From Perkinsus olseni (taxonomy: Eukaryota): 37,225 bases of DNA. The stretch is from assembly GCA_013115125.1 (NCBI GenBank), contig JABANN010000343.1, positions 1 to 37,225 of the forward strand. Reading direction: 5' to 3'. Position 1 is the first letter of the stretch. Each line of letters opens with the position of its first letter. Below the pieces are notes generated by a model, which worked only from the letters and a program-made list of their open reading frames with translations, was not told the origin of the DNA and made no database searches. The position numbers and the translations under genes were made by a program. This document shows, piece after piece, positions 88 to 15,218 of this stretch.

Positions 88-169
88 GTCAGTTTGGCCG
101 AGTGGTCTAAGGCGCCAGACTCAAGTTCTGGTGGAGAGATCCTCGTGGGTTCGAATCCCACAGCTGACA
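88..169 (+). tRNA. tRNA-Leu(CAA)
   Basis: Acceptor stem GTCAGTT/AGCTGAC, D arm TGGCCGAGTGGTCTAAGGC, anticodon arm CCAGA-CTCAAGT-TCTGG, long variable arm, T arm GTGGG-TTCGAAT-CCCAC. Confidence 0.95.
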
Positions 170-221: not shown

Positions 222-294
222 TAGCAGCTCCTTGTTTCGATCAAGGGACCTTTGGGTTATGAGCCCAACACGCTATCCACTGCGCCAAGCTGCT
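222..294 (-). tRNA. initiator tRNA-Met(CAT)
   Basis: Minus strand AGCAGCTTGGCGCAGTGGATAGCGTGTTGGGCTCATAACCCAAAGGTCCCTTGATCGAAACAAGGAGCTGCTA. It has the eukaryotic initiator hallmarks: A1-U72, three G-C pairs in the anticodon stem and an ATCGAAA T-loop. Confidence 0.95.
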
Positions 295-371: not shown

Positions 372-443
372 TGCACCGTCCGGGAATTGAACCCGGACCA
401 TCTGCTTGGAAGGCAGATATCCTAACCATTAGACCAAGGGTGG
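372..443 (-). tRNA. tRNA-Gly(TCC) whose 5' acceptor strand is replaced by the transposon terminus (possibly non-functional)
   Basis: Positions 8-73 are intact (TGGTCTAATGGTTAGGATA TCTGC-CTTCCAA-GCAGA ... CCGGG-TTCAATT-CCCGG ACGGTGCA). Positions 1-7 read CCACCCT instead of the GCACCGT required by the 3' strand, and they are continuous with the repeat also seen at 4490. Confidence 0.85.
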
Positions 444-785
444 GGGGGAAAAATCGAGAAAAGAGAGGGGGAAAAGAAGAAAAGGAGGAAAAGGGGGGAA
501 AGGAGAAGGAAAAAAGAGGGGAAAAGGAGGAAGAAGAAAGGAGGGAAAGAGAAGAAAAGAGAGAAAGAGAGAGAAGAGAAGAAGAAAGAAAAAAGCCCAG
601 AAGAGACAATGCGCAATGGGTGTTTCAGTGACGTCAGCTCGGCGCGTCAACTTTCAGGAGACAACGTGCGCAGTTGCGTTCAGAGTAGTGATTGATCTCG
701 CGACCTCGGGTTACGCGCGAACTTGACAGCGGAATATCCGCAACTATCCTACACAATATAATCCGTACACAGTAACACGATTTAT
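437..785. repeat. Direct repeat copy 1 (GA-rich tract plus ~190 bp unique part); transposon 3' terminal region
   Basis: Aligns by eye with 4490-4845, from AGGGTGGGGG..AAAAATCGAGA through TTGCGTTCAGAGTAGTGATTGATCTCGCGACCTC to GTAACACGATTTAT. Confidence 0.9.
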
Positions 786-1004
786 TACGGAGTACAAATA
801 TGGCACTACTGTCACAAACACAACCGAATCCCAGAATACATTCAACATTATCCATGCACAGCATTTTCAATCAGTGACAGCCACAGATTGCATCGGGTTT
901 CATCTGCAATTACCTATGACGCAGAGCGATGGACAACCGCACGCGATTTGGACACGAGAGATACTACCCACCAGATGCATTCAACTCCATTCATCTGCCG
1001 CCCG

Positions 1005-4000
1005 CTATGAATGGCGCTTCAAAGCTGGGCTGCAGAACCTGAGGGATTCTCTACGCGACTGGACCGGCACTGAAATCGAACTACTTTCAGATCCCTTCTT
1101 TGAGTATCGAGCCCGCTTCACCTCATTTCTGCGGCTCTTCTTCTCAGTGGCCCGCCTCTTCTTCAGAGTGATCAATTCTTGACGCCTGTCGTCAGTGAGA
1201 TTTTCCGCCAACGGACAATAGCAATTGGTGGAAGTTCTCGTCGCAGAAGGTCTCATGAGGATGAAGGACACCACTTTTCCCTATGATGCGGCTCTTGAAC
1301 GGCAGTTGACATAAGCCGCAACGCCGCTTGCCAGTTGTCGAGTCTTCCACCTTGACGTGGCGAGCGGCATCTTCCGCCTTTTTCTTCATTTCGACGAGGC
1401 TCGGATCAACCGGGGGCCTTGGATCCATAGGACAGCGACCAAACTTACTGCCATCGCTTTCGTGATCGTTGAAGCTTCGGTCGACCGTCAACGGCTTCGA
1501 ACAGAACTTGCAAATCCCCTTCACGGCTTTCACAGGGGGAATCGCAGGCTCCGGCCGCACACTAGAGGTTGACGGGACAATATCCTTGGCCGCCTCAGAT
1601 CTCTTTCTGAGCTCGCTGCAGAGGTCATCGCCAGTGACTGGCCTCGGCCCAGGTCCCAGAGGTAGACCTTCGGATCGAACCCGCGCTTGAGGCACCTCAT
1701 CAAACTGTGGAGCGGCTCCAGGTGTCAGGCTTGCATCCAGCTCCGCTATTGCTTCTGCCCCGCGCACAGTAGGGGGTACGAATGTGGCTCTACACGAGTT
1801 GAGTTGCTTCAGGAAGGTCTTTATGCAATCCAGAGACACAGGGTGATAGGGTAGAGGCTTTCTCCCCGTGAGCAGGGCGTCGTCGACCTCATCGAGAGTT
1901 TTGCGCAGATAGGTTCGATAGACGAACGTTGCACACCCACTACCACTCGGAGCTTCGCTGATTATGGCTCTTACGGTCCCTCGAACAAACTCCGACCATT
2001 TGCCCAATTTCACCGTGTGAGTGGTAGTATGCAAGCCTTTCAAGCGACAAAACTTGCGCTTGGGCTTACCTGCCTGCATCGCTGACCGGAAGGCAGCCTC
2101 CGTTCCCTCTACAGAGGGTAAATCCTCAGGGTCAGTCATTTCTACGTCTTCAAAATCGACTCCTTCCCCACCCGCGCTGCCTGCTGCTGCATCGAAGACG
2201 AGCTCCTCAGTTTCATCACGAGGCTCCTCGTCCCCGGACTCGTAGCCGTCAGGAATCTCACCCCTTTCCTCCAGCCACTCTTGGACGATCTCCTCGTAGC
2301 GTTGCGAGTTCAGCATAGTCAAGTACTCGTGTCCGAATGTTACACCCATCGAATTGAGTGTGATGTCCATCCCGTCGCACTGACTCAACTGTAACTGGGT
2401 AGCCTGATACTCGCTGGCGGATAGGGGGATGGGGATTTTGCTCAGTTGGCTGTCCGGATCAAGACGACTAAAGAGCCGGCGGTTCGCGAACACTGCCCTC
2501 CATAGTATCTTACAGTCGTAGACCGGACCCCCAGCTCGACTCACATGGCTGAGGTCGCGACGTAGGCAAGCATGCCGCGACTCATTGCGCGACGTGCCTC
2601 GGGTATGGCAGAGATTGCCGTGGGAGTCGGCCATGACCGGAGCGATGATCGTGCTATCAGAAGAACACGAGTTTCGAATATGCTTCTGGAGAGACTGATA
2701 CTGGCCCCAGAAGTTCGATGAGGCCCTGAATAGCGGAGCACCAACAGTTCCCATGAACGGTGCACCACTGGACGGATCTGCTTGGGACGCATCCGCCGCC
2801 GAGCGTCCCTCCTCGTCGAGCTCCTAGAAACATTTCACGACGGCGGCTACCCGCCGGGAGAGCTCCTCAGCTCCTGGAACCCGCCGCCTTACGTTCTGGC
2901 GGATTTCCGTCTTGGACGGAGCGCCTACAAGGCCAGCCGCCGCTCGCTTGGCCCTCAACTGAGCCATGTCCTCGGCAGAATCTTGGTAAAAAGCTCTGCT
3001 CAACTGGACTGCGAACATGGTGTGGCGAACATGATTCGGGTCCGTCGCTCTCAAAAGGCGAAAAATGCCATGCAGAGGATCTACTTTGAGCTCCAGCGAC
3101 GTGACCTGGAGAGCCTCAATGAGCTGTCCGTGAGCGCGTGAAGACTCCTCATTACAGCACAGGTAGTCGGTGAAGATCACCAAGTGGTCCGGTACATGCC
3201 CTCGGAGCTCACGTAATGCGGGTAGAAGACCAGCCAGAGAGACGTCCGGAACTGCCACGGTGTTCAGGATGACTCCAGCATCGCCGATCACTACGGCTAC
3301 GTATCCTTGTTTATTCGAGGTCAGACGCTTCGCCGTAGATCTCGTAAAATCCAACGAGATCGACTGAACCACGGTATACGAAGCCAGCTCTCGGCAAAGG
3401 ACTGATCTATGCCTTGAGAGGTCGCGTATAACAGCAGTACGGGGCATGGAGTGACTGACGTGAACTGATGGCGAGGGAACTGCCTCAGTAGGAGTCATGT
3501 CCCAAATAGATCGTGCCTCCTTTGACAGTTGGTGGAGGAGGGATCCTGGCCGGCACTTGTCCCTTACGACACAGAAGAGCGCCCGCCGTCTCTGCAAGGC
3601 CTCCTGCTCTTCCCCTGCCAGGTTTTCAAGTTCTCGACCGATATGCGATCCGTTGCGCAGCCTCCTTATCACTGTCATACTGACCGCAATCTGTTTGCCC
3701 ACGATCATACAACTCTCCAGAGACTGCCTCACTGACGACGGCAGGCTATCGATAAAACGATAATCTAGGGCCGAGAAGCAGCTTTTGCACTCCGGGTTGC
3801 GACACGACCTCCTGGTCGACACCAAACGGGCGGGCCACCCATTCAATCCTACCACATGCTTCACAGGAAGCGATTCCTCGACCGAACTTATTGCAATGCT
3901 CTTACAGGAAGGGCAGGACCCCCCGAAGGGGTGCCACACGTATAGAGACGAGCCTCGAAGCCGAGGCAGGACGTTCTCTGTTGGGCAGGTCGTGATGCTC

Positions 4001-4481
4001 TCCAGAGGCGGTAGGCAGCACTGGTATAGCCCTGGAACGCTGTTGTCCCCTTCTCGGAGCTCTTTTCCAAGAAGGCGTTCCAAATCGGAAAGGGTCTTCG
4101 GAGTGCATCGAAAGTCGCGATATGAAGAACTAGGCGCCTCATTCTCCGGATTCGTCCTCCCTCCGCTACTAGAACTCGCCTCACAAGCCGTTCCACTGGG
4201 TGCAGTAGTAGGTTGCTGCGACGCAGTAGCCGATTTGGCCGCAGAACTGGGTGGGTTGGTAGGGCCCTCAGCAGCCTTATTTCCGAACCACTTCAGTCCT
4301 TTCTGACGAGATTCCTGCTCGCGTGAGCGGATTATTTCATCTCTGATCTTTTTCACAGTAGCTTCGGGTAAACGACCTAGCGGAGGTTATCGATCCCGCG
4401 ACTCCCAAACACCCCTGTATCACCTGATCTTCCACTGCTTGAGTACGGATCGGCGCGCCGTGGATAAGCCAAACTGACCAT
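1005..4481 (-). pseudogene. Dada-like DDE transposase (~1080 codons) with an in-frame TAG at 2826-2824 and a likely frameshift near 1235
   Basis: ORFs 2824..4356 and 1192..2754 are in the same frame, separated by one TAG plus 23 sense codons. Candidate exon 1 is 4481-4424 (ATG GTC AGT...), followed by a 47-nt GT-AG intron 4423-4377 that joins in frame. C-terminal CxxC..H..CP fingers; the second finger's 'CYCP' lies in the shifted frame 1005..1274. Confidence 0.75.
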
Positions 4482-4489
4482 CTGACCAC

Positions 4490-4845
4490 AGGGTGGGGGA
4501 AAAATCGAGAAAAAAAGAGAGGTGGGAAAGAAGAAAAAGACGAAAAGAGGGGAAAGGAGAAGGGAAAAAACAGGAAAAGGAGGAAGAAAGGAAGGAAGGA
4601 AGAAAGGAGGGAAAGAGAAGAAAAGAGAGAAAAAAGAAGAAGAAAGAAAAAAGCCAAGAAGAGACCATGCGCTGGGGTGTTTCAGCTCGACGCGTCAACT
4701 TTCAGAAGACACCGTGCGCGATTGCGTTCAGAGTAGTGATTGATCTCGCGACCTCAAGCTACGCGCTGGAACTTGACAACGCAATTTCCGCAACTATCCT
4801 ACCCTCAGTCGAGCACCTAGAATCCGTACGCGTAACACGATTTAT
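4490..4845. repeat. Direct repeat copy 2 (diverged): either the 3' end of a second tandem Dada copy or a 5' terminal repeat
   Basis: Same orientation and colinear with 437-785, with many substitutions and indels. Similarity stops at ~4845. Confidence 0.9.
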
Positions 4846-5543
4846 AACTGTGAATTGATGCTCGACTGCTCAACAGGAGTACTCATGTAGGAAAGCGGGG
4901 TACTGAGACCGTAACCGGAAAGACGCTCTTTCCATCGGTGAGCTGCAATAAATCGGAAGATTAATAGTTGAAGTACTTACCCAATAAAAATTTGGATTTC
5001 CCCCCCCCCCGGATTTTAAGCCGTGTATTCCTAAATTATTCGGCACATATTTCGAGGGACCCTCCGAGATCTCGGCACCCACTGAGAGTTGTGGTCTGAA
5101 ACTTTGGCATTATACTCGGTAGGGTACTAGAAGGTATCTCTATACAATTCGTTTCGCAACTCGTACCAGTTGGAGCTTGCGGCGAGAAAAACACGATACT
5201 CCAAATTCATTTGGAGGATTGTAGAGGATTGATTCTTTCCTTTGTAAGATTTCCGAAAGGAATGAAGGGAAAAGATTGAGAAAATCGAGGGAAATTGGAA
5301 AAAATAAGGAAATAATCTGCGGAAATAGCACTATACACAGGTTGAAGGACAAGATAAAAGTACTGCTAAAGCGAGTCCTTAACCTTCACCACATTGCCCC
5401 TCGCTAAGATGAACCTATATAAAGTTCATGGCGAACAATCCAGGCAGGAATCATGACTTGACCATAACTCAACTCAATGCCTCCTTCGACACTGAGCAAC
5501 ACTTGCGGGTATGCGCTTCAGTGGTTATTCTCCGAATTGTAGT

Positions 5544-8500
5544 CTACCTAGTCATTGTTTGCTTCTTGAGGAGGGACGAGGTCTTCCAAGCCCCAATATA
5601 CAATGCGATCTTGCCAACGGCGTGAACGCTTCGATTCATCTTCCTATCCGGCTCGGCTTCAACCGATTCAACCGAGTTGGTTGCCGCTGATACACTCACC
5701 TCCAGCTTTTTTATCCATCCGAGCGCTCCCATTGCAAGCCTTGAGGCCTTTGAATGCGCGTCGTCTAGAGCCTCCTTGCGGTTCTTAAGAACCATTTTGT
5801 GCGCTGCAGTGCGATATCTGCGCAGAAAACCATTCTGTTCAGGACCCTTGGTTACCGTCCTATACCCTACGAGTGAACCGCTCGCTGGTCGACGGTTTCG
5901 AGAGTAGGCAAAGAGAAATCGTCTCCCGTCGAACCTTCAATACCTGTCATTCACGGAACATTGTATTCCATTATGGAATTCTCATGGCTGAACAGATATG
6001 CGGAGTATAGACTACCATCCGTCCCATCACCCTCCGTGTAACACCACCGATCTATTTCGGGCATCATCTGTGTCATGTCGACTCCTTCCCACACTCTCAA
6101 GGGTAGCGACCTAACGAACAAGCTCATTCCAAAACCAGCTCGATTCGGTGATACACGATGCTGTTACTCTCCAGACTGATCGATTGGGTCGACTTCTCCA
6201 GAGCTATGTCGACGCAGGAGTCTCTTCAGGGACATGCGCTTTGGCATCTCTCCAGTGAAGCCTGAACTTACGAACTGAAGACGTCGAGTCAGACAACGTC
6301 CCGGGTGCGCCGCACCCCTGAAGCTTGAAGGCATACCATCGGCATCATGTCCATCCGGGATTCGTTCAGCTCACCCGAAATGATCTCGAAGAGTTCTCCC
6401 CATGGCACCATGTCCAGGTATTTAATCACGCAATCAAAAGTTGAGTCGAGAATCTCGCAAGTGGCAACGCCTCTCTCAACCAGCACTTGAAACAATCGGA
6501 CTCGCGCAGCATACAATGCCTGTAAAATTGGATACGTAAAGCGCAATCGGCGTCCGCGAGGAATGTGCCACACACGTGAAAGCCTTTTAGAATGTTTACT
6601 ACGGACTTCGTCTTATGTTCGACAGTTCTGTAGTACACATAAGACGAAGTCTGTGGTGCACTTCTCTAGTTCTGTAGTACACATAAGACGAAGTCTNNNN
6701 NNNNNNNNNNNNNNNNNNNNNNNNNNNNNNNNNNNNNNNNNNNNNNNNNNNNNNNNNNNNNNNNNNNNNNNNNNNNNNNNNNNNNNNNNNNNNNNCATAA
6801 GACGAAGTCTGTGGTGCACTTCTCTAGTTCTGTAGTACACATAAGACGAAGTCTGTGGTGCACTTCTCTGTAGTGTCTTCGCAAGTATTCTCCAAAAGGC
6901 CCACCGAGTCACTCTCAAATCAACCACAGAATCATATCGAGCTCTACGCGCCTTAGAAAAGCTTTTCTCTAGGCAGCTTCACGTCGTGACTTGAGCGGTC
7001 ACAGCTGGTCACTCACACACCTTACCTTCGCGCAGTGTGTATGACGGACCTCTTCGCGCTTCTTGAGTGCCGCGAGCTGGAGCTCCGACTCCACATCTGG
7101 ACGGTCGACCCGGCTTATGCTCTCCAGTGTCTCAAAGTGCGCATCGTACCTAAGATGAAGGCAAAAAGATCGACTGCTCGCACTTCTCAAATCATGAAGA
7201 AGCCAAGTACTCTAGGCCCAGGATCCAGCCATGAGGCTCTCCCAGGGGGAGTGCCAGTAGGACCGAACAGAATATTACGCACATGGAATAACCCGATGGT
7301 AACCAAGACCGGCTAGTGGAAGAGGAGCATATTCTCTCTTAATAGGATAAATATACTCGGGCTGATAAACCACGGACACTTAGCTCCGTTGAAGAATAGA
7401 AAGTCACATTAAAAAAGGACACCTTTCTCAAAGGGAACAATAACTTTTGGCGAAAGTTCCGCCACGTTTCGCCGCGAAACGTACTTCTTGCTCGATGCAT
7501 CGCACGCCGACGAACATCGGTCAAGACTTGTCTGTATTTCTGCTTCGTATCGCGTCACAGCCTCCTTCACTCTGAAGCGGAAGTTACATTGATGACTCTG
7601 GCAAGAATGAGAGCCCCCACATCTCGTTGAAGATGACTTGACTGGCCTTAGGAATGATGCTGTCTCTCAGTCTCGAACAAATACCCTTCAACTTCCCAAG
7701 GCTCTCTGAGCGAAGTTTTCCACCAGAATCGAGTACCTTAGAAACAAACAGCAGCAATGACCGCACGCTCTGAAACGCGAGGCTTCGCACCCCACTCGAC
7801 CTACTGAGTCCGTGAAGGCCTGGAGATAGTGTGGGAGATTTCCTCCGATTTTCTGCTTAGCGGTGGCTACCTCATCTTCGATGGCCGTTTGATACCTGGT
7901 ATATAGTAAAAACCGCTGTTCGAGGTGAACAGAAAAGAAGCAGCGACACGCAGTAACAGCCCCTCCGCACGGCTTCAATGTGTCCGACTTCAGCGGACCC
8001 ATAACCGCAAGCAGCGAGTCTGATCGTATGGATGCCTCATCTACGTCATTAGCAGATTCAAATGTCCACGGGAGACGCTGCAGCACTCTACTCGAAGGGC
8101 ATGCTTTCGCATCATACCTGATTCTTCAATCGTTCCACACCTTCTGAGCCATATCGTTTCACCCACCTCTGTCTGTGTGCTGGCTTCACACCTTCTAGGT
8201 ATTGTATCAAAGTCACTACACAGGCTACCAGAATTGACTAAAAGGCAACCCAAAATAACGTATCATCGCAAGAGGATGTAGACGGCCGATAGACTCACCA
8301 GAGCTCCACGTATCTCCAGTTCCAGGCTCGGCGTCACTTTCACCAACACATGATCACGTGGACATCCGGCCGTCGGCCCCACCTGAAAATGCGACCTCGG
8401 CATAATCTATTAATCTCATATGGGAGCTCCACAGGGTCCGACTGACACCAAGCTTCCCGGCTAAGCAGACCTCTGCCTCCACGGCACTCCCTTGTTCATC

Positions 8501-11500: not shown

Positions 11501-14500
11501 TCGACATGAAGGCAGCTCGTCGAAACACAAAATAACCAACCGGCAATAGCTCAGTTGGTAGAGCGTCCGACTGTAGTGTTTGGTATCGGATGGTCCCTGG
11601 TTCGATTCCGGGTTGACGGACGTTTCGCCAACGCATTTCTTCACGAGTTGTTTGGTACAGTTATGGTCGTATGAGTCGATTCCTGGTTCTTCAACCTTGA
11701 TGAGGTCAGCGAGACCTCATTGGCTGCGTCTGCGCGTCATGTCACGGTTGGTCAGACTTTATTCCATTCTGCGCGTGGCGATCGCAGGTCCCACCGCCGA
11801 GGAGGATCTTCTCAAGTGGCAAAAGAATTCATAAGCAATAATACGCCCTGACGATCCTCTCTCACTCCAAAAGAGAGAGAACCCGATCATTCAAATCACA
11901 GTCAGAGATGAGGAGTCGGACTCGGCCCACTAGACGCCTCAGGCTCACCTCAAGTCCGAGGATATTCCCCACTACGCTCTTTTGAAGGTCGAAGAAGGTC
12001 TGAGACTCGACACTCCCCTCATCCAAGCCCTTGTAGGCTTCTCAAGTTTGCCATGACCTTGGCGTGCTTACCTCCACTGCCTTCGGATATTCCTCGTGGA
12101 TGTCTAGCATCTGCTTTGCGAAATCTTCTATTCCCGCAGCCATGTGGTCCAGATGGGCGTAAGCCTGATGGACAATCAACTCCAGCCGAAACCCGAAACT
12201 GGATACCAACGCGGCCGAGTGGTCGACGCTTCCAGTAACACTAAAAATCGCTTTCATTGCAGCGCACACGCGACGCGGTCGGCGCAAGCGGAACGTAGTT
12301 GAGCGTTTGTGCCGCAAGTGAATCGCTGCCATCGACCACTTCATTCAGACCTCCATAGTAGCTTTCTCCAGGTCAGGATCAATGTGGGCAGAGTCTCGGA
12401 TGCTCCTGCGGTACTCCTGCAGCTCCCCTTCATTAGCCTCACACTCCGCCTCATGCTCAGCCTGACTGCCACCCACCCTCGGACGATCTCAGGCTAACCG
12501 CTACCCTGTGCTTCCGCAACTTTTCATCGTGTTCTGCCACCATGCCCTGCTTCTGAGTCTTCATCTCTTCCAGAGCTGTTGACGCTTCAACCATGAGCGA
12601 TGCAACCCGAGAGCACCTGGATAAGCTCTCCACAGAATTCTCGAGAATGGCCAACCCGTGTGCCACCTTGTCCGCTGCTCTCCCTCTAGTTCAAACAGTT
12701 TCTCCTTGCTTTTCGAGACCATACAATCCAGCTGTGCGTAGCAATCATTGAGTTCGGACGAGACCGCGGCGTCGGCCACATCGGCCGCGGTTAAATGCTA
12801 ACAAAAACCCTTTCGAAGTGTTGCTGAACAAACAGAACCCTCATTTTCATGAGGAACCAAGGCAGCAGCAGAGCAGCATCGAAGGAGCGGCGCATATTCC
12901 CACCTCGCCCCAACTTGGTCGACAGTCGATCTGTTCGATCATAGCCACGAGTTGGTCTCTGAGCTCCCGCCCCACTTCCTCGATACGACACCGAATCCTG
13001 TCCATAGCCTCGCCTTGTACAGAATAGGTCTGCAACAGAGCGCAATGGTCATTCCATTATCACCGAGAAACGCAGCGCGCAACTGAACTCCGCTGTGAGC
13101 TGACGACGCCGTCGCTACCAAGTATCTTACCTTCTCAGCTTCATCCCCAAGTTCGATGAGAGATTCCAGAGCGGCCTGAGTTCTGGCACCAGTCAAATCG
13201 GACACGGCCAAATCTCGAATCTACCAGGGTACGAGTTCGAACAGATGAAGAATGAAGAGCCGTCACCTCTAAAAGGATATTTAATCGGCGCTGCAGCAGG
13301 TCGGTCTGACTTTCTTTAACGAAATCGAACACCTGAAATATTGCCTCTTCGAAAGATCTTATCGCTCCCACTCGAGCATTCACCCCAACGAGCTGTGGAG
13401 GGTCCTGGAACTCTGGGCCACGGAGCCTCTCCAATGCCTCCCTTATAGCCCGATCGTGGCGGCATGTGCGCCATGCATGTCGACCGCGCTCCCTGAAATT
13501 TGAAAGGGCTCAGCCACTGCCCTTTCCATCAGGCCCACGCACCATCTCTCAGTGAGGGAGACCTTTTCATCATTGCATCTGATCGTGAGGAGCTTCTGCA
13601 CCAACTCGACATGCTCTTTCCTGTTCTCCGCAAGGACACTGTTCGCCTCTGTTGTCAGTCCATGAATAATCCTGCCAATCACCGCTATGGAACGGATACA
13701 CGGGAAGAAGCTCGCTGATGGAGTGGCCGATATTGATGACATCTTACCGTTCCACACTGCCTTGATCAGCATGGGCAGCGAGCAATAGCTCCTCCGTCAG
13801 GGACCTCAGACGCTCATCTATGCTCCGCTTGCGCACAGCGCATTCGATATCCTAACGGCATGCGAGAAGGCGATCCGGAAGTAAGAAAATGTGCGGTGAC
13901 CAATGTGCGGCTTCCCGAGGGACAAGGCAGGCTCCAGTATCGGCTTATCATGGCCCAGTACTCCACAAGGCACGAGTATTGGCATGCGGCATGTTAGCTC
14001 AGATACATTTACTAGGACAGATGCGAAGCCAGATCCGCTCGAGGCCTTTGGGCCGTGGGTGAAGGCAATTATCCCATAACCAACAGATACTCAGACGATC
14101 TGAGTCAGATCGGACCTCCAGTGACTGGGCGAACTTATCAATCAGCTTTCGCCGATCCGCGATTGTGGACTCCACCATCTCCAAGACTTTGTCGATCCAC
14201 TCTATGCTCTTCGAGCCTGCAAGGGCCAATTCTCGAGGCCAATACCACAAGCATTCTCCTCCACTTAGGATAGCCTCCCCTTCATCGTCTCCCTCCTCTA
14301 TTTCCGTCACACGTAGCAACGCGGCGATTTCAGAGTCTTGCTGATCCAAGCAAGCGTTGAGCTCCTCCGACGCGACTTGGACCTGAGGAAGAGCTAATGC
14401 TTACCATATAGAGTTGCATTAAACTACTTTAGCGGCGCACTCATCCGCGAGAGCGGCAACATACTTGTGGTAGCCCTCCAGAGCCTCATCGTGCCGAGCC

Positions 14501-15146: not shown

Positions 15147-15218
15147 AGGTTCTATCGGGATTCGAACCCGAGTCGCTGGCTTCAAGTTCCTGAGTGCTAA
15201 CCGCTACACTATAGAACC
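15147..15218 (-). tRNA. tRNA-Gln(TTG)-like gene or pseudogene with a disrupted anticodon arm
   Basis: Minus strand GGTTCTATAGTGTAGCGGTTAGCACT CAGGA-ACTTGAA-GCCAG CGAC TCGGG-TTCGAAT-CCCGA TAGAACC T. Acceptor and T stems are perfect; the anticodon stem has two mismatches and the loop has A32/C33. Confidence 0.8.

Follow-up and report, generated by a model that had tools for sequence, protein, structure and literature searches.

A tRNA-like mosaic at a Dada transposon joint in Perkinsus olseni, proposed to be a decayed tandem junction

Introduction

To our knowledge, Dada is the only strictly site-specific superfamily of eukaryotic DDE transposons. The window analyzed here, a stretch of 37,225 nucleotides of contig JABANN010000343.1 from the shellfish parasite Perkinsus olseni, contains a tRNA gene interrupted by a transposon whose inner junction, at 4468–4496 on the minus strand, reads like a mosaic of tRNA pieces. 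The initial annotation took this 29-mer either for a decoy target that the element carries along and that promotes tandem self-insertion, or for a relic of insertion into, or recombination with, a tRNA-Leu gene. Hence, the question is which element is present, whether the tRNA likeness exceeds chance, and how the joint arose.

In Perkinsus marinus, the element Dada-tG_PMar is reported to insert in tRNA-Gly-GGA (Kojima & Jurka 2013, PMC3706591), and the Perkinsus Dada sites are placed at tRNA nt 8–13 (Kojima 2022, PMC8869645). In their text, the same two articles describe Dada elements inserted in tandem, Dada copies with chimeric tRNA flanks, and target hexamers that have been replaced; they are also the only literature found to join Dada, Perkinsus, and transposase.

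Architecture of the locus

The features of the locus are as follows, with coordinates of the window.

88..169, plus strand: intact tRNA-Leu(CAA); its first 11 nt and one leader base match 4468–4479 on the opposite strand
222..294, minus strand: tRNA-Met(CAT), member of a repeated Gly-Met-Leu unit (802 bp in L042)
372..436, minus strand: tRNA-Gly(TCC) nt 8–72, the 3′ part remaining after insertion
431..436, minus strand: target core TGGTCT, equal to tRNA nt 8–13 (A box), the published Dada site
437..800, minus strand: right end of Dada copy 1, pyrimidine-rich, with a terminal T-run, C-run, and 5 nt; inner limit approximate
1080..4454, minus strand: Dada transposase remnant, from codon 26 onward
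near 1221, minus strand: frameshift in the transposase remnant
2824–2826, minus strand: premature stop in the transposase remnant
4377–4423, minus strand: 47-nt intron in the transposase remnant
4453..4482, minus strand: 30-nt segment whose source is in dispute, the left terminus of copy 1 being the favored reading and a repair filler the alternative; 4453–4456 are common to the ORF
4468..4479, minus strand: 12-mer identical to the 5′ end of tRNA-Leu
4473..4488, minus strand: 8-bp tandem repeat, 7/8 identical, including the tRNA-Gly 9-mer at 4476–4484
4483..4489, minus strand: 7-nt spacer made of an extra G, TGGTC (target nt 8–12), and A
4490..4848, minus strand: right end of Dada copy 2, of the same family and diverged; the remainder of the copy is gone
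4847..4917, plus strand: unrelated dispersed repeat of ~70 bp that bounds copy 2

Nucleotides 1–7 of tRNA-Gly(TCC) were not found in the window. The right end of copy 2 is 80% identical to that of copy 1 by BLAST; 299 of the 328 aligned columns are identical, with 65 gap columns. Both copies are assigned to family A, and the genome search, which gives a lower bound, returned no further right ends of this family. On the minus strand of 4481–4700, the joint sets a long pyrimidine tract and AG right before an ATG in the frame of the remnant ORF, an arrangement that is splice-acceptor–like, but the ORF is broken further on. Elsewhere in the window, a 44-bp tandem repeat, itself containing an inverted repeat, lies around an assembly gap (6594–6870). 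Two more tRNA genes are located at 11540–11621 and 15147–15218; one is Tyr-like and probably has an intron, and the other is a Gln gene.

Identity of the transposon

The minus-strand ORFs at 1192–4386 match the P. olseni protein P0001 at 100% and have no match in Pfam. In total, 78 relatives of P0001 were found; 20 of these were looked up, and the named ones are proteins of Perkinsus (olseni, chesapeaki, and marinus) or of diatoms. The residues D362, D423, D452xxH455, and E595 (P0001 numbering) are kept in at least 90% of 23 aligned homologues. In addition, the transposase contains a CCCC motif of two Cys pairs near residues 174–216, as well as a C-terminal Cys pair, His, and Cys, the final Cys being located past the frameshift in the window copy. 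Its predicted fold (mean pLDDT 66) is nearest to ISCth4 of the IS256 family (E ~1e-5), followed by the P-element transposase, with five matches at E below 1e-4.

The right end of copy 1 directly abuts nt 8 of tRNA-Gly(TCC), the point at which 3 of 13 tRNA-Gly–like loci are interrupted. A target-site duplication of 6–7 bp is seen on both sides of the relatives L085 and L084; around the window copy, the repeated part is limited to 5 nt and accompanied by an extra G, and the 5′ piece of the tRNA is absent. No inverted pair of at least 20 nt links the element ends, the left end of the window copy being itself uncertain. The G-rich terminus resembles the Dada-tA ends of Fig. S4 in PMC3706591. The window element is a Dada by every testable feature, the duplication test of this copy apart. 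No related DNA was found in viral and metagenome collections.

The start of the transposase can be judged from P0079 (KAF4691012.1), which belongs to the same 90% cluster as P0001 (97% identical), is uninterrupted, and carries 25 extra residues before ADPY. These 25 residues are conserved with the paralogue P0081. By this comparison, the window transposase lacks its first 25 codons. The annotated start of P0001, MVSLAYPRR, was rejected as the true N terminus since P0079 and P0081 share a different 25-residue start; it is a product of the gene caller reading through the joint. The second "intron" annotated in P0001 merely skips the stop. Neither the missing N-terminal exon nor an intact family-A copy was found elsewhere in the assembly by searches that give lower bounds.

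tRNA matches in the joint and their chance level

The minus-strand sequence from 4496 to 4468 reads exactly as first annotated, and each of the tRNA matches named there is present. TGGTC repeats nt 8–12 of the tRNA-Gly target. The A-box likeness amounts to 12/15 between the 15-mer at 4474–4488 and tRNA-Gly nt 8–22. The 9-mer at 4476–4484 equals 396–404, which is nt 40–48 of the intact tRNA-Gly gene, and the 12-mer at 4468–4479 equals 87–98 on the opposite strand. Herein, the 12-mer comprises one leader base and 11 nt of the mature tRNA-Leu(CAA), which begins at 88.

Chance levels were estimated with 28-nt control windows from both strands of the remaining window, compared with both strands of 1–436. 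This reference is the local cluster; against the complete tRNA set of the genome, chance would be higher. A match of at least 12 nt occurs in 68 of 62,974 control windows, and the 12-mer together with a separate 9-mer in 0 of 62,974. The 9-mer by itself is weak because 5.7% of the control windows contain a match of at least 9 nt. When the reference is restricted to the five tRNAs of the window, the 11-mer is equaled in 260 of 62,974 control windows. The tRNA matches are not independent since they overlap one another (by 4 nt and 1 nt) as well as the 8-bp tandem repeat at 4473–4488, which the initial annotation had not recorded. Such repeats with 7/8 identity occur 25 times in 31,515 control bases, once with the centre-base geometry of 4473–4488.

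Genome-wide, the pattern of the 12-mer has 19 hits, namely, 10 tRNA-Leu(CAA) genes, one Leu-like relic, seven unrelated sites, and the joint. The 15-mer of the joint recurs once, in a perfect 8-bp duplication at L096, a site without tRNA and without Dada. At that site (G000:C478, 130–195), short fold-backs cluster with the duplication.

Dada ends and end-to-end joints in the genome

Right-end junctions were collected at 10 places. They share a T-run, a C-run, and ~5 nt, followed by the core; copy 2 has an extra G. Both core alleles, TGGTCT and TAGTCT, are found in this genome.

Genuine left ends were found at three loci. L085 consists of tRNA-Gly nt 1–7 and a family-C element with the 6-bp duplication on both sides. 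L003 (G000:C1150, 68–1138, minus strand) is a complete, internally deleted family-B Dada outside any tRNA; its direct repeat is identical over 5 bp and differs in the sixth base. L084 (G000:C3053, 146–4185, minus strand) comprises two internally deleted Dada elements in perfect tandem within tRNA-Arg(ACG), in the order tRNA 5′ piece, core, element, core, element, core, tRNA 3′ piece, with a unit of 1,983 bp that is 99.9% identical. Its left end contains a 35-bp hairpin. An Arg target for Perkinsus is not listed in the text of PMC3706591 or PMC8869645.

Compared with the target from nt 14 onward, the left end starts with 6/6 identical positions in the Arg family of L084 (binomial chance 0.0002), 7/9 in the Gly family B of L003 (0.0013), and 5/9 in family C of L085 (0.049), chances that apply to related families and, for L084, to a locus that could carry a 12-bp duplication. 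Thus compared, the genuine Dada left ends of this genome begin like tRNA nt 14–22. Because L003 sits outside any tRNA, the A-box–like start belongs to the element and not to its flank. This likeness was not found stated for tRNA-targeting Dada in the text of PMC3706591 and PMC8869645.

Joints of a right end, a core, and a left end recur at L084, L107, and L042. L107 (G000:C2935, 227–186, minus strand) is an isolated joint of 42 bp with no tRNA nearby; it is built of 10 nt that match the family-A right end at 9/10, a 6-nt core, and 26 nt of the family-B left end. The locus is enclosed by other repeats near a low-complexity contig end. L042 is a 5′-truncated sister copy. At its right junction, 7 nt of left-end–like sequence precede the resuming tRNA, and the filler at its left junction is built of repeats, one direct of 9 nt and one inverted of 7 nt (3/3,146 controls).

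Since end-core-end joints stand at three loci and the left ends resemble tRNA nt 14–22, the decoy idea is partly right, and such joints may attract new insertions. The part without support is the 29-mer as a conserved cassette inside the element. The sequence is single-copy in the genome; it takes in the terminus of a second element copy, and the ORF that it leads into has lost its start. With the first 25 codons lost, the joint itself is a dead, single-copy scar.

Several further observations concern these elements. The 47-nt intron of the window copy (4377–4423) has a counterpart of equal length at the same codon position in L003 (966–920), which belongs to another Perkinsus Dada family. At L045 (3587–5993), a Dada lies at nt 8 of tRNA-Phe with an ORF opposite to the pyrimidine-rich end, unlike in the other copies observed. 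At L044 (6756–6830), a Dada right end is located beside a tRNA-Asn–like 3′ part, and the six core bases are not A-box–like, which resembles the "replacement" of the target hexamer published for Dada. Candidate left junctions with tRNA-Gly nt 1–12 were discarded, as the 14 pattern hits are seven intact tRNA genes and seven unrelated sites. A likeness of right ends to tRNA nt 1–7 was dropped as a general trait; right ends look much the same in families that use different targets, so the 5/7 match of family A may be partly chance. A degenerate pattern of right end, core, and target returned this joint alone, against one control hit; with one control hit for a single true hit, that search is uninformative.

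Origin of the joint

The right end of the related copy 2 lies directly upstream of the joint and is followed by the TGGTC core. The best explanation of the bases that follow, with about an even chance of being right, is that the joint consists of this right end, a 7-nt target core, and ~30 nt of the left end of copy 1, after which a short deletion leads into the ORF. In this sequence of events, the left end of copy 1 would start like tRNA nt 14–22, as do other Perkinsus left ends, so that the left junction of copy 1 (core plus left end) would again be a usable target. Copy 2 would have come to lie there, giving the order right end, core, left end, with a spacer of 7 nt instead of 6. A 4-nt slip copied from the neighbouring core may then have created the 8-bp repeat, and a deletion of ~110 bp at a 4-nt GC microhomology would have joined left-end nt 30 to codon 25–26, a size obtained by adding 25 codons to the leader of family B, which measures 66 nt. 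Another repeat would have cut copy 2 short. The A-box look would thereby be inherited Dada anatomy, and the tRNA-Leu 12-mer and tRNA-Gly 9-mer would be by-products.

This reading is favored by the tandem at L084, the isolated joint at L107, the left-end–like bases at the right junction of L042, and the element-borne A-box–like start at L003. It is also favored by the alignment of 4453–4482 with the family-B left end, which gives 16/26, needs one gap of 4 nt, and is in register at either end. An equal score is reached by 214 of 62,997 control windows. By the same statistic, the left ends of families B and C give 1,955/62,997, a poorer value than that of the joint against B. The 4 nt left out of the alignment are readable as a copied TCAG whose original lies immediately upstream. 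The 30-nt stretch shares its last 4 nt with the ORF, in line with a deletion at microhomology. Published Dada tandems combine copies of two families, separated by the target duplication (PMC3706591, Fig. S3), and according to a suggestion in PMC8869645, the insertion site is bound by Dada mainly on its downstream side.

Several points stand against a tandem origin. When ATGG and the terminal GCGC are dropped, because the rival of a repair filler explains these bases, the likeness to family B falls to 8/17 (10,296/63,009 controls) and is not significant. The 21-nt stretch without its GC-rich tail is likewise not significant against left end B (2,113/20,000) or C (5,128/20,000), whereas B against C treated alike is significant (138/20,000). 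The motif common to B and C at about +10 to +19 is poorly kept in the joint, and the extra G at the end of copy 2 breaks the register of most other right ends. A genome search found no second family-A left end for comparison. A tandem origin also means that the 12-mer match to tRNA-Leu (68/62,974; with the 9-mer, 0/62,974) must be a coincidence.

The serious rival is copying from tRNA-Leu during repair, which we consider possible, though clearly less probable; the weights of these two readings are a judgement and not a computed posterior. Copies 2 and 1 would have been located in the tRNA-Gly genes of adjacent Gly-Met-Leu units, and a deletion of ~0.9 kb from Gly nt 12 to the ORF of copy 1 would have been healed by polymerase-theta–type end joining. 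The templates would be Gly nt 40–48 on the same strand and, after a 4-nt overlap, the 5′ end of tRNA-Leu on the opposite strand, 348 bp away. The mosaic would then literally be made of tRNA pieces, yet it would be a one-off scar without function. Both templates belong to the 802-bp repeated unit of tRNA-Gly, -Met, and -Leu, and a deletion running from a Dada copy in one unit to that in the next would therefore remove the unit that holds them. The joint occurrence of both matches, found in none of the controls, and the overlaps of the pieces by 4 and 1 nt also favor a filler. Moreover, the genuine left ends contain no match longer than 8 nt to the Gly-Met-Leu unit, the sister copy L042 carries its own repeat-built filler at the left junction, and the genome encodes a helicase-plus-Pol-A protein with a POLQ helical domain. 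This POLQ-like gene is located at L093 (G000:C517, 3154–8373) and combines a DEAD helicase, the POLQ helical domain, and Pol A. Multipiece, partly reverse-complement fillers are described at deletions in Arabidopsis (PMC5217109, section 14).

A filler nevertheless calls for more events, as the template must be switched twice and 2 nt duplicated, and it leaves 6 bases unexplained. Its Leu template is 348 bp off, whereas the fillers described in PMC5217109 mostly match DNA within 100 bp; the array spacer that should lie upstream of copy 2 was not found in the window; and it would be by chance that the sequence resembles, in register, both the family-B left end and the joint at L107. The filler pieces match nearby DNA above chance and with overlaps, and these bases are equally covered by a tandem origin.

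In a third reading, held to be very unlikely, the inverted 5′ end of tRNA-Leu became attached straight to the right end and core at the 4-nt overlap, and an 8-bp duplication with a complemented centre base came later. This duplication would be the excision footprint of a cut-and-paste transposon and would have produced the A-box look and the Gly 9-mer. The geometry of 4473–4488, seen once in the control bases, and the same 15-mer in the perfect duplication at L096, with neither tRNA nor Dada, argue for a footprint; it needs, however, the visit of an unrelated transposon within 28 bp and turns both the Gly 9-mer and the left-end likeness into chance.

The initial alternative of a relic in tRNA-Leu would place copy 1 at tRNA-Leu nt 8–13, or just its left end if transposition was one-ended, and would take 4468–4478 for the 5′ remnant of that gene. 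The match does start at tRNA nt 1 and end inside nt 8–13, and PMC3706591 describes zebrafish Dada copies flanked by pieces of two distinct tRNA genes. A plain insertion of this kind is unsupported because the upstream bases match none of the 10 tRNA-Leu(CAA) leaders and the core of nt 8–13 is incomplete, being cut at nt 11; no left end follows, and the right end of copy 2 is only 11 nt upstream. It is thus given hardly any probability.

Equally improbable is that copy 2 sits at an unrelated near-cognate site, or that the joint is an assembly error, with the further matches due to chance: off-target insertion exists (L003) and a 9-mer alone is common (5.7%), but P0001, encoded on a separate 5,070-bp contig, has the same N terminus read through the joint from 4481, so that the joint from there on was assembled independently of the window contig. 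Sampled words of 400–5000 are present at 62–92% in eight runs of two studies, which is context for the region at large and does not bear on the joint itself.

Comparison with known systems

The window element shares with Dada-tG_PMar and the P. marinus Dada families (PMC3706591, PMC8869645) the genus, the tRNA-Gly-GGA target, and the site at nt 8–13, as well as, by the description in PMC3706591, the transposase motifs and the lack of terminal inverted repeats. It differs from Dada-tG_PMar in its core, which is TGGTCT instead of TAGTCT (compared by the published description), and in being a broken copy. The P. marinus elements are called intronless in PMC3706591, whereas a conserved intron is present here.

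As in the zebrafish Dada-U1A/U1B tandems (PMC3706591, Fig. S3), the end of one copy is followed by the target duplication and, in the reading favored here, by the start of another copy. One of those zebrafish joints has no spacer; here, a spacer of 7 nt is present, and soon after it the downstream copy is interrupted by a deletion. The Dada-U6, -U1, and -tL copies of zebrafish are reported to have been active recently. PMC3706591 also remarks that an apparent 8-bp duplication is really one of 6 bp and that short subterminal repeats are common to U6 and U1 genes.

ISCth4 of the IS256 family (PMC7780238) is the nearest solved fold, and it forms end-to-end junctions with 6–8 bp spacers derived from the flank. 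Unlike the window element, it is bacterial and has inverted repeats and no such sequence specificity; here, the joints seen are chromosomal only. Templated insertions of the polymerase-theta type (PMC5217109) resemble the joint in their multipiece filler from nearby DNA, in either strand and with short overlaps, and differ in that one template would here be 348 bp away.

Implications for Dada transposition

A by-product of this analysis is a panel of Perkinsus Dada termini, comprising the right-end pattern at 10 junctions, three left ends, and the end-core-end joints, although Fig. 2 and Dataset S1 of PMC3706591 may already show Perkinsus termini.

A bolder reading, which we regard as unlikely, is that the Dada left end, by copying nt 14–22, would regenerate the target with each insertion and that the element would move via an IS256-like end-to-end (circular) intermediate, the spacer of 6–7 nt being carried over from the previous flank. 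It is rated this low because the joints are chromosomal, and no circle was seen. If true, it would account for the spacer of 7 nt and the isolated L107 joint, for the nontarget cores at L042 and L044, and for the "replacement" of target hexamers, which was published without an explanation. Dada would then transpose by copy-out/paste-in, as a eukaryotic DDE element whose landing site renews itself.

If the left-end likeness to tRNA nt 14–22 is general, it would give a simple reason for the tandem arrays of Dada. It would also provide a testable handle on how Dada finds its site and on the frequent replacement of the hexamer, and site finding by Dada is relevant to its proposed use in targeted gene delivery.
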